From contig SHMW01000090.1 of the NCBI GenBank assembly GCA_008080735.1, forward strand, positions 1 to 17,500: DNA of 17,500 bases, read 5' to 3'. Each line of letters starts with the position of its first letter. Within the stretch, counting starts at the first letter, position 1. The stretch comes from Promethearchaeota archaeon. GTDB lineage: Archaea; Asgardarchaeota; Lokiarchaeia; Sigyniarchaeales; SOKP01. This document shows, one piece after another, positions 1,980-17,162 of this stretch. Both the position numbers and the translations under genes were made by a program. Under the pieces are notes generated by a model. It worked only from the letters and a program-made list of their open reading frames with translations. It had not been told where the DNA came from and ran no database searches.

Positions 1980-2633
1980 CTAAGTACTTATCATAACTTT
2001 CTTTTTGATAATTTTGCGTAAGACAACGGAGAGGGTTGATTTTGATTTGCCTAATTCATTTGCTAATTCTTCTAAAGAAATTTTCCTTGGAATATCAAAA
2101 AACCCTTCATCAATCGCTTTTTGTAGGATTTCCAGCTCATCCAAACTTAATCGGTGACCTTCATCCTCTAGATTCACAGAAGTATTTCCAATTTTTAATA
2201 ATTCAAAATCTATGCCCATTTCTTCAAACATTGTAAGCATTTTATCAATTCTTTTACGGGTCGAAATTAAATCCCAATATGCATAACCGTCTTCTATTTT
2301 TACTGGAAAATCCACCAATACCCCACATTTAATAACTCCATAGAGTAAATACGGATCCATTGTTTTTACATTGAATTTAATGCGATTTTCCTCTCTCTCA
2401 ACTAATGAGAATTCCATAACAGAAGGATGGTTTTGGATTTCCTCAATCATTAAATCGATATCGTAATGCATAATTTCTACCACAGCGTTCCCGATTGATT
2501 TTTCCAAATCATAGGGGAGAAAGTATAATATTTCCATTTGAACATCATGGAACTTTTCAAATATATCTGAGATCCAGATTCCTTCCGGAAATTCTACTCT
2601 AATGGTTGCGATTGTCGAATTTTGAGAATCCAT
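1980..2633 (-). CDS. Archaeal transcriptional regulator with C-terminal bacterio-opsin-activator-type HTH (HTH_10)
   Basis: C-terminal LS..E.EILQKAIDEGFFDIPRKISLEELANELGKSKSTLSVVLRK is the typical HTH_10 signature. Start taken as the ATG at 2633; the alternative is GTG at 2657. Confidence 0.85.
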   Translation of the reverse strand: MDSQNSTIATIRVEFPEGIWISDIFEKFHDVQMEILYFLPYDLEKSIGNAVVEIMHYDIDLMIEEIQNHPSVMEFSLVEREENRIKFNVKTMDPYLLYGVIKCGVLVDFPVKIEDGYAYWDLISTRKRIDKMLTMFEEMGIDFELLKIGNTSVNLEDEGHRLSLDELEILQKAIDEGFFDIPRKISLEELANELGKSKSTLSVVLRKIIKKKVMIST

Positions 2634-2719
2634 AGCGACTGATAAAAAAGGGTTCACTTTCTATAGAGATTTTATGTAATTAGCAATAATATTAAATAAT
2701 AAATATACTATTTCTTCTT

Positions 2720-3316
2720 ATGTCTTTGGATAAAAACCTCCTTATAGGAGTTTGTGGAAGCCCCAGAAATCAAGGAACTGAATTTGCTGTCAAATATGCA
2801 CTTGAATATGCGAGAGATAAATTTGGGTTTGAAACCGAATTTTGGACTGTGAGAAAGAAGGAGATCAAGTTTTGTATTCATTGCGATTATTGTATAAGAG
2901 AGAAAAAAGGATGTATCCATAAGGATGATTTACAAGGATTATATCCGATACTCGAACAAGCCAAGTTTTTGTTGTTTGGTACCCCGGTCTTTCAAGGAAA
3001 CTTATCAGCCCAAATTAAGGCAATCATGGACAGGTGCCGAGCTATTGTTGCTAAGAATCCAGAAGTCTTTAAAAATAAGGTAGGGATGGCCCTAGCAGTT
3101 GGAGGGGATAGGAGCGGAGGGCAAGAGATTGCGATGCGAACTATATTAGACTTTTATCAGCAAAATCATATTATTTCTGTTTCTGGCGGTGCGTTTGGTG
3201 CCAATTTAGGAGCAGCATTATGGAGTAACGATAAAGGAAGGGAAGGGGTTGAAAACGACCAAGAGGGGTTGAAGGCAATACGAATGGTAATAAAGCGATT
3301 AGCAGAGTTTCAATAA
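2720..3316 (+). CDS. Iron-sulfur flavoprotein (Isf) / NADPH-dependent FMN reductase-family flavodoxin
   Basis: GSPR flavin loop, compact Cys motif CIHCDYC-x6-C, GTPVFQG, and GGDRSGGQE. Confidence 0.9.
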   Translation: MSLDKNLLIGVCGSPRNQGTEFAVKYALEYARDKFGFETEFWTVRKKEIKFCIHCDYCIREKKGCIHKDDLQGLYPILEQAKFLLFGTPVFQGNLSAQIKAIMDRCRAIVAKNPEVFKNKVGMALAVGGDRSGGQEIAMRTILDFYQQNHIISVSGGAFGANLGAALWSNDKGREGVENDQEGLKAIRMVIKRLAEFQ

Positions 3317-10788: not shown

Positions 10789-11082
10789 TTAGTCTAAAAA
10801 CATCTCTTCTGCTTTATTTTTTCGTAGTCCCGTCTGAGACCAGAGCTCTTTGAAATAATAACTGCCATCCATAATTACAACGGGAGTGTTCACAATGCAT
10901 TCATCAGCATCGCAGAACGTCTGGACGAAGTTTTTATCTTGAAGAAGCTGATTCACAAATTTTTCATCATTTATGTCTTGCTCTATATATTTCACATCAT
11001 TTTCATTAAGCCATTCCTTCAGTTCATGACACCTATGGCAATCTTCCTTTGTAACTATTATTGGGAGCTTCATTTCGGTCAT
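10789..11082 (-). CDS. Glutaredoxin/NrdH-like thioredoxin-fold protein
   Basis: CHRC active site, NTPVV cis-Pro loop followed by DG; SD-like GAGGT about 6 nt upstream on the minus strand. Confidence 0.8.
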   Translation of the reverse strand: MTEMKLPIIVTKEDCHRCHELKEWLNENDVKYIEQDINDEKFVNQLLQDKNFVQTFCDADECIVNTPVVIMDGSYYFKELWSQTGLRKNKAEEMFLD

Positions 11083-12496: not shown

Positions 12497-13564
12497 TTAT
12501 ATGATATTTCTAATGAACCATCGGAGTGCTTCCAGAGTTTTTTTATCATTATTTAATAAATTTACAGGAAAATATTCGATTTTCACGTCGCACTCGTTTA
12601 TTTGATCAATTTGAAAAGTATCGTTTACTATCTCTTCGGAAACTTCTTCATGGTAGGTAAATTTATTACCGATGATGAGTATGGGGATGGTATCCTCAAG
12701 CTCATGATTACATATTTTTTTCACAATAATTTTAAAGCGTTCCTTTGCATCAATAATAGATTGTTTATCGGACACATTGAATATAAGTATAAATCCTTGC
12801 GCCTTATTGATACATCTATTACTTCTTCCACATTGTTCACATTTAAATTGGTTATCAATACACTCTTCCATCAAAATTTCCATATTGTCAATTACCACTT
12901 CTAAGATTTGGGTGCCTAATCCGCTGTCATCTTGACTATGGAATTGCAGTGCTTCGATATTTTTGAGGAATGTTGTCTTTCCCGCATGATCTGCCCCAAA
13001 GATAAAAACTTTTTTAAGTTCATCCTTTGATTTCTGGAGGAAAGGGCCCTCCTTCATGCATAAGGTCTTAAAATAGGATTTGAATAGATTTATAAACTTT
13101 TTTTGGAAAGATTTGTTGCCTAATGAAATTAAATCTTGCTGATTTTCAATATCCTTATTTTGGTTCAGTATTCGCGAGAAATCTTCTAATTGTTGTAATT
13201 CAGAGGCAAATTCTTCTAAAATTGGGGTTTTCGATTCCAAATAGCGATAAATATCAGAAATTTCGGATTTAAAATATGCGGCTCGAATCATGTAAGAAAT
13301 CATCAGCAAGTCTTTCCCTCCCCTCGCATATTCACTTTCCAGATAGAAAATATGGTTAACCGTTTGGTATTTTCGAAAGGCAAATATAAATGTTCCTTCT
13401 TCATTATTAAAATCAAGAATTCTACCTAAATCAGGAAATTCCTCACGATCCGATAATTCTGCATTGCAATGAAAGGTGTTAGGGCCGATAATTCTGTCAA
13501 AATAACTTATGCAGAGAATTTCTGTGAGCGGCATATCTAAGGATAAATAATCCTTTTGAGGCAA
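12497..13564 (-). CDS. uDENN/longin-like domain fused to a degenerate Ras-superfamily small GTPase domain (eukaryotic signature-type protein)
   Basis: N-terminal SYFDRIIGP and HIFYLESEYARG motifs. C-terminal KVFIFGADHAGKTT P-loop, AQGFILIFNVSDKQS, and IPILIIGNK (G4 lacking Asp). No DxxG G3 motif. Start is TTG 13564 or ATG 13534. Confidence 0.8.
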   Translation of the reverse strand: MPQKDYLSLDMPLTEILCISYFDRIIGPNTFHCNAELSDREEFPDLGRILDFNNEEGTFIFAFRKYQTVNHIFYLESEYARGGKDLLMISYMIRAAYFKSEISDIYRYLESKTPILEEFASELQQLEDFSRILNQNKDIENQQDLISLGNKSFQKKFINLFKSYFKTLCMKEGPFLQKSKDELKKVFIFGADHAGKTTFLKNIEALQFHSQDDSGLGTQILEVVIDNMEILMEECIDNQFKCEQCGRSNRCINKAQGFILIFNVSDKQSIIDAKERFKIIVKKICNHELEDTIPILIIGNKFTYHEEVSEEIVNDTFQIDQINECDVKIEYFPVNLLNNDKKTLEALRWFIRNII

Positions 13565-13780: not shown

Positions 13781-14122
13781 ATGATTCAACCTGGTGAGAA
13801 TGGAATGGAAAAAATGGAATTTCCGGAATATATAGAAGAATTAGCAACTAAAGTGGAAGGAAAGAACGACAAACGAGATATGATAGCTTTTACGCTTTCT
13901 ACATGTCAATGGTGTAAGAAATTCAAACGTTATATGGAAGAGCATGATGTTGCGTTCAGATATGTTGATGTTGACCAAATAGACCCCAACGATAAAGCAC
14001 AAATTCTAAATTTTTTGCGCAATAGTTTTAGCAACAGAATATCTTATCCATTTTTGATATGTGAAGGAGAAGCTGTCGTAGGATACAATCCTAATAAATA
14101 TGAGGAATTATTAGAAGGATAG
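13781..14122 (+). CDS. Glutaredoxin, methanoredoxin-like
   Basis: LSTCQWCKK active site, ISYP cis-Pro loop and AVVGY. Resembles Methanosarcina methanoredoxin (LSTCVWCKK, recalled). An alternative start at ATG 13805 is preceded by GGTGAG. Confidence 0.88.
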   Translation: MIQPGENGMEKMEFPEYIEELATKVEGKNDKRDMIAFTLSTCQWCKKFKRYMEEHDVAFRYVDVDQIDPNDKAQILNFLRNSFSNRISYPFLICEGEAVVGYNPNKYEELLEG

Positions 14123-14133
14123 GGTGTGTAAAT

Positions 14134-14514
14134 GTGAGTTTTAATTTAGAAAGTAAGGAAGGAATGAAAGAATATTGCGATGTCATATGCGAAAGAAATG
14201 GCTGGATTCTTCAAAAAGATACTGAAACCCTGAATGATTTACTCGAAGGTTTAGTTGAGAATAAAAAAAATTACGGATATCAGTCATGTCCTTGCCGGTT
14301 CGCATGTGGAAAGAGAGATTTGGACAGAGATCTTATATGTCCTTGTGAATATGCGCCTCTTGATATCGAGGAATATGGAACTTGCTATTGCAACTTATTT
14401 TTAAGCCCCGATTATTACGAGAGATATGACAGAAAATTCGTGCAGATACCAGAACGACGTCCTGTAGAAAAGGAGAATGCCGTTTTAGAGTATATGAATG
14501 AAAAAGTTGATTAA
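14134..14514 (+). CDS. Ferredoxin:thioredoxin reductase catalytic-subunit family (ferredoxin:disulfide/glutaredoxin reductase)
   Basis: YGYQSCPCR, DLICPC, GTCYCNLF (CPC/CPC/CxC) and IPERRP motifs; 11 nt downstream of the glutaredoxin, with a GGGTG SD-like site. Confidence 0.92.
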   Translation: MSFNLESKEGMKEYCDVICERNGWILQKDTETLNDLLEGLVENKKNYGYQSCPCRFACGKRDLDRDLICPCEYAPLDIEEYGTCYCNLFLSPDYYERYDRKFVQIPERRPVEKENAVLEYMNEKVD

Positions 14515-14548: not shown

Positions 14549-14669
14549 TAAATTATAAGTCTGCTCTTCTCGATTTTAAAAGGAATTACGCTTATTATCC
14601 ACACCTCACTCCGAAAATCAATATTTTATAATCTGAATTTTTTTATATTTTAGATTGTGTGTAGATAAT

Positions 14670-14828
14670 ATGTCTAAGGAAGATCTAACAGATGAAGAAA
14701 TAGAAGAGATGCTTGAGAAAGATTTAAAAGCAAACGAAGCCAAGAAAGATAATTGTGGAACCGCTATCCCTCCAAATAGGGAAGTGGGAGTTCAGAGAAA
14801 TCAAGTTAAAATGAAAAAAGAAGAGTAA
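14670..14828 (+). CDS. Small hypothetical protein, 52 aa (below the ORF-track cutoff)
   Basis: MSKEDLTDEEIEEMLEKDLKANEAKKDNCGTAIPPNREVGVQRNQVKMKKEE*. Purine-rich coding-like composition in an otherwise T-rich gap, TATA-like elements upstream (14624-14631, 14641-14648), tandem TAA TGA stops and an oligo-T run downstream. Confidence 0.7.
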   Translation: MSKEDLTDEEIEEMLEKDLKANEAKKDNCGTAIPPNREVGVQRNQVKMKKEE

Positions 14829-14886: not shown

Positions 14887-15954
14887 CTAAGATTTTTCTT
14901 TTTGTTCGAGAATTTTCAATTCCGTAATAGCTCCGATCTCATTAAATTTGGAAGGTTTTATTGCTAATTCCTTTCCCGTCAGTTTGTTAACTATCGATGC
15001 GCTAAAAAGAGCCCATGGACATACCGCATCTTCAAGTTCTTGTTCATTCATAACGCTTCTTACTCTGGCAGTCGAACAATTAATAGATTCAATCGTAAAG
15101 GTGTCTTCCGATTTCCATTTGATTTTAATCTTCTCAGCCATCTCGATTTCTTCAGCCATTTTTGAAAACTCTTTCATCGCATCGTTCAAGCTCATGCGTT
15201 CCAGTTTTTTCATGTCAAATCCTGACATGTTCATCATTCGCTCAATAAATTCATAGGTCTCTGGTACGACATATTTATATAGTGCGGGTTTACCAAGAAG
15301 CTCTTTCGCTGAGCGTTCATAGCCGAATGTTATACCATGTAAGATAAAAGCAATTTGATTAATAGAGAACCTATCCTTCTCCTTTGTTGCCTCTCGAGTT
15401 TGATTCATGACAATTAGAAAAAGGACAAATCCAATGATAAATGGGACAATTCCAGTCCAAACAATATTCGGCGGTACCAAAATCACAGATCTCGTAAAAC
15501 CCGGATATACAACAAAATAAAAATTATATAAACTTGTCCAGTGGGAGATACTCCATCCGATAACGCCTATTGGCCCGAGGATATGGCCATAATTATATAT
15601 ATCGTCCTTTCTAAATTTCGCAATAATCAATTTCGTAGATACGAGCACCAATGCTAAAAATCCACCAAACCATGCATGAGACCATATTCCCGAGGGACGA
15701 TATAAATTAGGGTCACTGGCAAGAACGTGTTGAGCAAACATATAGAGGCACTGGCCAACAATCACGAAGAAAATTATCCCTTCGATCCTTCCAAACCATT
15801 TATGAGCTTTCACCAATTTGAGATTTCCTTTCATCAAGTTCAAATCTTTTATATTAGCCAATCCAATACATGCATTCGCAATAACAAAACTATACCCGAT
15901 AAACGTCTGTAAAATCATTAATTCTATCCAAATTTCCATCCAAAATGGCGGCAT
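14887..15954 (-). CDS. Membrane protein: cytochrome b561/DUF6529-like N-terminal domain fused to a V4R/methanogen-output-domain-like C-terminal domain
   Basis: About 5 TM helices with the pattern HKWFGR...CL...HAWFGG...K...HWTS. The soluble C-terminus has FTIESINC...VCPWALF...KLTGKEL, a V4R-like two-Cys pattern. Confidence 0.65.
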   Translation of the reverse strand: MPPFWMEIWIELMILQTFIGYSFVIANACIGLANIKDLNLMKGNLKLVKAHKWFGRIEGIIFFVIVGQCLYMFAQHVLASDPNLYRPSGIWSHAWFGGFLALVLVSTKLIIAKFRKDDIYNYGHILGPIGVIGWSISHWTSLYNFYFVVYPGFTRSVILVPPNIVWTGIVPFIIGFVLFLIVMNQTREATKEKDRFSINQIAFILHGITFGYERSAKELLGKPALYKYVVPETYEFIERMMNMSGFDMKKLERMSLNDAMKEFSKMAEEIEMAEKIKIKWKSEDTFTIESINCSTARVRSVMNEQELEDAVCPWALFSASIVNKLTGKELAIKPSKFNEIGAITELKILEQKEKS

Positions 15955-16052: not shown

Positions 16053-17162
16053 TTAAAGTTGAGCTAAAATATCCATATAAACCTCTTCAATAATTTCGAA
16101 ACTCTCTAAGTCTCTTCGATTTCCGATTACAATAAGGGCAACATTTTGTAGATTTACGCAAAATATAACAGTTGAAACTCCCCCAATACTACAAGACAAC
16201 AATTTTCTATTAAAAATTTCTTGACTCGCTCTTTTGGAAGAGGTCAAAAAGCTAATAATTTCAGGAATGTTATTTTCGTATGTGTTCTTATCCTCATTAG
16301 TCTGTAAATGTTTGAATAAAATGCCCCCGTCTAAATTTACGACGAAAAATTGTGATATTTTCTCAGAATAGGTTATATCGCTAAACAGTTTCTCGAGCTT
16401 TTTCAATTTTCTGCTGAATATGTGTGATTCGTCAAACATCTCGAATATTTGTTTCTTATTCGCACTAGTTGCTTTCAGGTCATAAATTTTAACTAAAAAG
16501 ATGGAGGCTCGAATTTCTATTAACAAAATTTCGTTTTTAATTGTATTAAGCATTATCCAATTCAGTTCTTGGTTAAGATTTCTTTCGTATAGTAATTTGG
16601 ACGATTTCGTGAGTAACGGGATGAGATAACTCATTTTGTCTTTATCTACATATTGTTTTGCATAGATAAAAAGAAGATCTCCATCACCAGGCTCCAAAAA
16701 AAGCACGGATTTCAAGGAATTCCCAGCATCTATCTTCTCTATCGTCGATTCTAATACATCTAAACCATAGGCCATAAAGATTTCATTAATATTCTCATCA
16801 AATTCTTTGAATGGAGTAATATCCCCATCAAACGGTCGGTCCAACCTCTCCTCGTATTTTGCTGTGAAGGTATCCATAATTTTATGAACAATAGAATGGA
16901 TAAGTTCAATCAATTCCTCGCTTTTGGTGGTGGCAACAAATGTTAAATGCTGTTCTAGTTCTTCAAGCCGCTCGAAAATAATCTGGGTCTCCTTTAACTT
17001 TAGGGATTTAATATCCTCTCCCCTCTCCATCGTGGCAAACGAATTTAATGCTGAGAGAAAACCCCCCACCAGATCATCTTTTGACTCTTCTTCTTGCTCA
17101 TCGTGATGCCAACTATATATTACTTGTCCTCCTGTATTTAGAATAAAAAGTTCATTGATCAT
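16053..17162 (-). CDS. Longin-like domain followed by two roadblock/longin-like domains (Asgard eukaryotic signature-type protein)
   Basis: N-terminal ELFILNTGGQVIY...DLVGGFLSALNSFA...IKSLKL...LTFV. The same beta-hairpin start recurs twice (SVLFLEPGDGDLLF; QFFVVNLDGGILF), each followed by a helix and a beta-meander. Confidence 0.72.
   Translation of the reverse strand: MINELFILNTGGQVIYSWHHDEQEEESKDDLVGGFLSALNSFATMERGEDIKSLKLKETQIIFERLEELEQHLTFVATTKSEELIELIHSIVHKIMDTFTAKYEERLDRPFDGDITPFKEFDENINEIFMAYGLDVLESTIEKIDAGNSLKSVLFLEPGDGDLLFIYAKQYVDKDKMSYLIPLLTKSSKLLYERNLNQELNWIMLNTIKNEILLIEIRASIFLVKIYDLKATSANKKQIFEMFDESHIFSRKLKKLEKLFSDITYSEKISQFFVVNLDGGILFKHLQTNEDKNTYENNIPEIISFLTSSKRASQEIFNRKLLSCSIGGVSTVIFCVNLQNVALIVIGNRRDLESFEIIEEVYMDILAQL

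Follow-up and report, generated by a model that had tools for sequence, protein, structure and literature searches.

Fusions of Rag/Arf-like GTPases to longin or roadblock domains have been described in Prometheoarchaeum MK-D1 (Tran et al. 2024, PMC10933270), in a report that makes no mention of a subfamily with a four-cysteine loop. A GP motif and an arginine finger, on the other hand, are common to the eukaryotic GAP longins and to one class of Asgard longins (PMC12290439, 2025). The longins and small GTPases of Asgard archaea are studied as forerunners of eukaryotic systems for membrane traffic and nutrient sensing, such as FLCN–Rag, GATOR1–Rag, and C9orf72/SMCR8–Arf. Members of the Arf family are recognized by an N-terminal amphipathic helix and by the sequence WDVGGQ in the interswitch/switch II region. 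Among the pseudoGTPases of the Ras superfamily, proteins of the Rnd and RhoH types bind GTP without cycling, and CENP-M binds none. We know of no pseudoGTPase in which a four-cysteine cluster takes the place of switch II, and a search of the literature returned no paper on an Asgard pseudoGTPase and nothing on such a cluster in the switch II of a pseudoGTPase.

Metal ligands in or next to switch II are found in the NifH-type and G3E P-loop NTPases, dimeric proteins of the SIMIBI class in which the ligands are shared across subunits or provided by a CxCC motif. A cysteine spacing that will be met again below, Cys-X6-Cys-X2-Cys-X5-Cys, is the [4Fe-4S] motif of endonuclease III and MutY (PMC11138216; bioRxiv 10.1101/2025.01.03.631205). 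The cluster of MutY has been lost independently in evolution, and filling of the resulting cavity has been modelled for the clusterless proteins (bioRxiv 10.1101/2025.01.03.631205).

The protein considered here is encoded by a stop-free reading frame in the window, that is, the whole stretch of 17,500 nucleotides that was analysed. Judging from its sequence and those of its relatives, it holds a stable, family-wide pseudo-GTPase-like domain with an apparently ancestral four-cysteine loop for switch II, fused to a longin domain of the folliculin type. Longin-GTPase fusions as such have already been reported; no published description of this Cys4 subfamily was found. Its features are the following, with residues counted from the TTG at 13564.

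12497..13564, minus strand: whole open reading frame, 355 aa if begun at TTG, but probably 345 aa with the ATG at 13534 as start; longin domain and Arf-like pseudo-GTPase domain
13049..13531, minus strand: longin domain and helical linker of the folliculin/NPRL2 type (residues 12–172), from the AF2 model and structure matches
13481..13501, minus strand: GP motif F22-D-R-I-I-G27-P28, with F22, G27, and P28 invariant across the family
13319..13327, minus strand: A80-R81-G82, candidate arginine finger, invariant in alignment A1, with R81 in 132/134 family members
12500..13024, minus strand: Arf/Sar-like P-loop domain (residues 181–355), from Pfam Arf and Foldseek
12974..12997, minus strand: G1/Walker A motif GADHAGKT (190–197), with G190 in 123/123, K196 in 119/123, and S/T197 in 112/123 members of the three large cysteine classes
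12911..12913, minus strand: T218, equivalent of the switch-I (G2) Thr, aligned with PT(L/I)G of the canonical relatives; T or S in most members
12863..12865, minus strand: E234, the retained Walker-B/G3 acid, that is, the D of DxxG (hhalign of A1 against A3; profile against Arl8/Sar1)
12812..12862, minus strand: C235-x6-C242-x2-C245-x5-C251 loop, in place of GGQ, of switch II, and of the first part of helix alpha2, from translation and alignments
12656..12667, minus strand: NKFT (300–303) replacing NKxD, with N300 near-invariant, K301 and F302 mostly kept, and no conserved Asp

The annotated TTG start is probably wrong. All relatives in the family alignment begin at the equivalent of Met11, and the 25 bases directly upstream of the TTG form an A/T-rich, TATA-like stretch that abuts it; both facts argue for the ATG at 13534 (M11), which would give a protein of 345 aa and a short leader and would lower all residue numbers by 10. 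A scan for sigma-70 promoters and terminators was uninformative, the host being an archaeon.

Modelled alone with 30 relatives (AF2), the N-terminal 160 residues adopt a longin fold with a pLDDT of 90.8 and a pTM of 0.88. The structures that match this model best are a Lokiarchaeal longin (8yqg, Z 11.8), FLCN (6nzd_H, Z 11.1, rmsd 3.0 over 136 residues), Lst4 (Z 10.4), and a GATOR1 chain (8fw5_C, Z 10.4), and Foldseek likewise placed FLCN and GATOR1 on top (8dhb_J, E 1.1e-4). As modelled, the N-terminal domain is a longin fold closest to those of FLCN and GATOR1. The candidate finger Arg81 lies in a S-x-x-A-R-G sequence and may be likened to the finger of FLCN and NPRL2 as described in PMC12290439. 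The same genome encodes, on contigs C72, C73, and C7 (loci L003, L002, and L006), other longins with a GP motif and ARG whose C-terminal fusion partners differ (296 and 446 aa); among these loci there is also an Arf-like GTPase with canonical motifs (GLDNAGKTT, DMGGQ, NKFD, SCKTG), which is joined to a domain at its C-terminus.

The C-terminal domain matches Pfam Arf (PF00025; cut-off 22.3) with 39.4 bits (5.5e-10) when residues 181–355 are searched alone, and with 38 bits (1.5e-9) over residues 181–353 when the whole protein is used. The only NCBIfam match is small_GTP, below its threshold, and NCBIfam holds no family for the protein. In Foldseek, the C-terminal half of the full-protein AF2 model (pLDDT 79.5, pTM 0.52) retrieves Arl8/Arl10B, the Hodarchaeal ArfR1 (HodArfR1), and Sar1 at about E 5e-6 with a probability of 1.0, so that in the model the domain keeps an Arf/Sar-like G-domain fold. 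The Arf hallmarks are absent: the N-terminus is a longin module of 170 residues, not an amphipathic helix, and switch II is the cysteine loop, not WDVGGQ.

Across 134 cluster representatives of the family, the conserved positions of this domain are G190, G195, K196, S/T197, T/S218, D/E234, N300, and K301. Position 234 is an acid in 114/123 members of the large classes (45/52 with four cysteines, CCCC; 41/43 xCxC; 28/28 CxxC); it is Asp in most of them and Glu in the window. No representative among the 134 has a DxxG at the G3 position, and the only such strings in the protein of the window are DHAG, within the P-loop, and DDSG (212–215), neither of which is at that position. When aligned, E234-C-I-D-N falls on D-V-G-G-Q, so that the acid is kept, while every member has other residues in place of the Gly and of the catalytic Gln. 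Retention of the G3/Walker-B acid at E234 follows from the agreement between the profile alignments to canonical relatives and those to Arl8 and Sar1. D237, which a single-sequence phmmer comparison with Ras had offered as the G3 Asp, was dropped in favour of E234 after the profile-profile and profile-PDB alignments. The Asp of G4 is absent from the family or shifted one residue later, some members reading NKID or NKFxD, and no SAK (G5) is present in the family.

An earlier note on this DNA, made from its letters alone, had described an intact P-loop at G190–T197, the four cysteines with their positions and spacing, and NKFT instead of NKxD, and the translation bears out all three. Its statement that G3 is replaced by the cysteine cluster holds for the Gly and the Gln, but not for the acid. 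Its proposal that the domain is catalytically dead finds no support. Conservation extends to the Walker A motif, the Thr/Ser of switch I, the acid of Walker B, N300, and K301, and with these residues in place nucleotide binding is likely kept. Most plausibly, the domain would still bind nucleotide and Mg, would lack the usual gamma-phosphate sensing and hydrolysis, and would have lost its guanine specificity. This binding would not be universal in the family, because a few four-cysteine members have a degenerate Walker A (GDQDVAKI, GNPKEKAE). In some xCxC members (P0100, P0111, P0120), an Arg replaces the Walker A Lys (GAPKTGRTT), which suggests a further decay of nucleotide binding there.

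The conserved nucleotide-site residues would also suit a working NTPase of unconventional catalysis, in which Arg81, acting in cis or across a dimer, takes over from the lost Gln, the specificity for the base is relaxed (ATP or any NTP), and the cysteine loop is only a structural brace. The near-invariant GP motif and Arg81, which would match catalytic elements of FLCN, NPRL2, and SMCR8, speak for such an enzyme, as does the Asp near the G4 position of the NKID and NKFxD members. However, no member has the G3 Gly by which the gamma-phosphate is contacted, the Walker A motif is broken in some, the clade of the window has no Asp at +3 or +4 of NK, and the interdomain arrangement is not confidently modelled (the pTM of 0.52 given above). 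We regard this enzyme as unlikely, although worth keeping in mind.

The family was found in 59 of the 68 genomes of the window's own GTDB family and in none of the 233 others among the 301 Asgard genomes sampled at E <= 1e-20, including the seven of a sister family in the same order; the NCBI organism names of the full-length matches span several candidate phyla. An exhaustive HMMER search yielded 26 clusters (50% identity) at E <= 1e-30, followed by more distant two-domain proteins (about 320 aa, 20–30% identity). These paralogues hold the full canonical set (GLDxAGKT, PTLG, YDVGGQ, NKxD, SAK), and hhalign relates them to the family over the full length, with a probability of 100% and an E-value of 3.8e-40.

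Loss of the canonical motifs could be taken as the mark of a dying GTPase gene with incidental cysteines, and lineage-specific decay was the outcome by which the earlier note would have seen its own reading refuted. Against such decay, the open reading frame is intact, it has more than 300 full-length relatives of about 345 aa (45–76% identity), 40 columns are invariant in an alignment of 25 sequences, and the gene was found in most genomes of the GTDB family. Moreover, the motif states are fixed family-wide, with DxxG and the G4 Asp lost throughout a family that is under purifying selection. The pseudogene reading, contradicted by these conservation data, is rejected as highly improbable.

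The loop begins with C235, directly after the Walker-B acid, where the canonical Y-D-V-G-G-Q-x-x-F-R underlies Y-D-C-x-x-x-x-F-x-C in the family, and it is about three residues longer than its counterpart. The cysteine codons lie on the minus strand at 12860–12862 (C235), 12839–12841 (C242), 12830–12832 (C245), and 12812–12814 (C251). In the full AF2 model the confidence of this region is middling, with block means of the pLDDT of 78 for residues 231–240 and 62 for residues 241–250. Among 134 cluster representatives, with genera taken from the whole-genome search, the cysteine states are distributed as follows.

CCCC: 52 representatives; genera g1, g3, g6, g8, and g9
xCxC, with C245 replaced by F/Y: 43 representatives; genus g2
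CxxC, with C242 mostly G/D/E and C245 mostly V/I: 28 representatives; genus g5
No cysteine: 5–7 of the 134 representatives
Three cysteines: 2 of the 134 representatives

In maximum-likelihood trees rooted on the canonical paralogues, CCCC proteins form the backbone and each of the deepest branches, with the xCxC clade (support 99*) and that of the CxxC proteins (99) branching from within them, whether or not the columns of the loop are included. The simplest history is that the four-cysteine loop is ancestral, having arisen once on the family stem, at the time when DxxGQ was lost, and then been lost independently at least three times; with weak support near the root, this single gain is a matter of parsimony and not a proof. 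The alignment of homologues that the earlier note had proposed as a check thus has a double outcome: the four cysteines appear conserved and ancestral, but the full set was lost while the protein persisted. Since three lineages do without it, the complete site would not be essential to the core function of the family. The scarcity of three-cysteine forms and the bulky hydrophobic replacements fit a tetrahedral site that a protein either has in full or has given up. The change of C245 to F/Y in xCxC proteins, or mostly to V/I in CxxC proteins, resembles the way in which the cavity is filled in models of MutY proteins that lack the cluster. Further cysteines are conserved in the CCCC and CxxC classes at positions 18, 33, 284/285, and 325.

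The spacing of the four cysteines is not a chance occurrence. It is found twice in the 3,659 open reading frames of at least 100 aa of this 4.1-Mb genome (1.16 million residues, Cys frequency 1.19%), against a chance expectation of about 0.02 by our own arithmetic. The other instance is an RNA polymerase subunit D/Rpo3-like protein of 278 aa (contig C70:15962-16798, minus strand), whose segment with this spacing corresponds to what we take to be the Zn loop of eukaryotic Rpb3; the same protein carries a ferredoxin-like cysteine-rich segment further on. Classic zinc ribbons and rubredoxin knuckle pairs hold two CxxC knuckles, a pattern that the loop does not follow, as it has a single CxxC (C242-E-Q-C245) with C235 and C251 standing alone. 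Pfam returned no match for residues 225–262 at E-values up to 10, and PF10576 (EndIII_4Fe-2S) matched nowhere in the genome, which is 93% complete, while the control matched in 12 of 14 reference genomes. The spacing is not diagnostic of the metal, given the absence of a PF10576 match, the unrelated fold, and the other instance in RNA polymerase subunit D. From the sequence evidence, a metal site of some kind in the loop is fairly probable, with Zn somewhat likelier than Fe-S.

Several genes with a possible redox function surround the locus, three of which deserve mention.

13781..14122, plus strand: divergent glutaredoxin-like gene with the active site C-Q-W-C (Pfam Glutaredoxin, 4.6e-8; alignment A6)
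14134..14514, plus strand: homologue of the catalytic subunit of ferredoxin:thioredoxin/disulfide reductase, FDR (Pfam FeThRed_B, 4.2e-21)
10789..11082, minus strand: second glutaredoxin-like gene, downstream, also conserved at the loci of relatives (Pfam, 6.6e-5; tblastn matches at the g1, g5, and g6 loci)

Known components of thiol relays include the ferredoxin:disulfide reductases of archaea and methanoredoxin, which is glutaredoxin-like (PMC7278568). The divergent pair, which had been brought forward as fitting a redox-gated switch, adjoins the orthologue in five of seven genera (g1, g3, g5, g6, and g8), not in g2, and the neighbourhoods of the relatives include genes for CCG/Hdr-like proteins, Fer4, FMN reductase, OsmC, and rubredoxin reductase. 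Other genes also recur around the locus. At 14655–14828 (plus strand), downstream of FeThRed_B, there is a small open reading frame of about 52–57 aa with no family, and a gene of 51–53 aa occupies the same place in L007, L009, L010, and L011. A membrane protein of 355 aa (14887–15954, minus strand) and a protein of 369 aa with a Fuz_longin_1 match of 1.5e-7 (16053–17162, minus strand) are conserved at 76% and 50% identity, respectively, in a same-genus relative (L007). An HTH_10 regulator and FMN_red genes (1980–3316) lie about 9 kb from the gene here and 2–4 kb from the orthologue in several relatives.

A regulatory mechanism based on this context would be a switch gated by redox state, where oxidative or thiol stress leads to the oxidation or loss of a [4Fe-4S] cluster or Zn-thiolate centre. 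This would alter the former switch II and, through it, the longin output, and the glutaredoxin and FDR would reset the switch. The spacing is identical to the endonuclease III/MutY motif, and with C235 directly following the Walker-B acid, a change in the metal would reach the nucleotide site. The conserved glutaredoxin–FDR pair and the redox-type genes around the relatives' loci point in the same direction, as does genus g2, which lost the adjacency along with five conserved cysteines (33, 235, 245, 284/285, and 325), although this suggestive pattern is one event in one lineage. However, genus g5 keeps the pair with only C235 and C251 remaining, so the adjacency is not tied to the four-cysteine state. 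FDR is also more conserved than the pseudo-GTPase gene: FeThRed_B occurs in 74 of the 121 Asgard genomes sampled, including genus g4, in which the family was not found. The absent PF10576 match and the presumed Zn loop of RNA polymerase subunit D speak against an Fe-S reading of the spacing as well. The complex prediction between the G domain (A5) and the divergent glutaredoxin (A6) scored 0.00 against a mark of 0.32, which counts neither for nor against binding. The genomic context thus fits a redox link without singling it out, since g5 keeps its neighbours with two cysteines, FDR is widespread, and every case of adjacency comes from a single taxonomic family, whose members can share synteny by descent. 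We consider such a stress-gated switch possible, but improbable. In its furthest form, switch II would have become a redox-active centre ([4Fe-4S] or Zn-thiolate), and the thiol/ferredoxin redox state, not GTP hydrolysis, would set the longin output, with the glutaredoxin and FDR resetting it; this we hold to be a rather speculative proposal.

The explanation that we favour, to which we give a probability of roughly one half, is a putatively metal-braced, non-cycling, nucleotide-bound platform. According to it, the C-terminal domain would retain, in Walker A, the Thr of switch I, Glu234 of Walker B, N300, and K301, what is needed to hold an NTP with Mg. Gone from it are the elements required for switching, namely the gamma-phosphate-sensing glycine of DxxG, the Gln of catalysis, the Asp of G4, and the motif G5. 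The founder of the family would have exchanged switch II for the 17-residue Cys-x6-Cys-x2-Cys-x5-Cys loop right after the Walker-B acid. The four thiolates are proposed to bind one metal centre, with structural Zn favoured and [4Fe-4S] as the serious alternative, and this centre would hold the former switch II in a single conformation. Instead of a GTP/GDP timer, the domain would then be a nucleotide-bound platform for its own longin domain and for partners. The middling model confidence of the loop (block pLDDT 62), the single CxxC pair, the three lineages without the full site, and the broken Walker A motifs of some members count against this platform. So does the conservation of Arg81, which would be easier to understand if GTP were still being hydrolysed.

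In one Lokiarchaeal lineage, therefore, a cis-fused longin-GTPase appears to have given up its GTP-driven switch II for a cysteine cluster. If metal is bound, we know of no earlier case of a Ras-like (TRAFAC) G domain whose switch II has a metal centre built into it, and because orthologues with four, two, and no cysteines exist, the family offers a natural experiment on the role of such a centre. Were the site only structural Zn, a well-defined new pseudoGTPase subfamily would still be at hand; were the redox-centre proposal true, the family would be an archaeal, redox-driven counterpart of the FLCN/GATOR–Rag nutrient signalling.

Among the systems described to date, the closest are the Asgard longin-GTPase fusions (PMC10933270), which share the order of a longin followed by an Arf/Rag-like G domain and a length of about 320–350 aa. 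Unlike their canonical relatives, in which DxxGQ, NKxD, and SAK are kept, members of the Cys4 family hold the cysteine loop and have lost G4 and G5. The N-terminal domain resembles the GAP longins FLCN, NPRL2, and SMCR8 and the Asgard GP-motif longins (PMC12290439) in its fold and probably also in its F-x4-GP motif and in the candidate finger Arg of S-x-x-A-R-G. In contrast to FLCN, NPRL2, and SMCR8, however, it is fused in cis to a G domain, where those longins act in a heterodimer on a Rag or Arf that is a separate protein; it is followed by no DENN domain, and its GAP role is putative. With the pseudoGTPases of the Ras superfamily, it shares a G fold that is kept while the catalytic and switch motifs are lost.

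Endonuclease III and MutY show the identical cysteine spacing and, as in this family, independent losses with compensating packing. Their fold and context are nevertheless unrelated; the Cys4 protein has neither a PF10576 match nor an HhH-GPD context, and a cluster in the Cys4 family is hypothetical. The NifH and G3E proteins differ in class, the domain described here being a Ras-like member of TRAFAC with all four cysteines within one loop of 17 residues. The likeness to them lies in the position of the ligand, which, just after the Walker-B Asp, could couple the state of the nucleotide to a metal centre.
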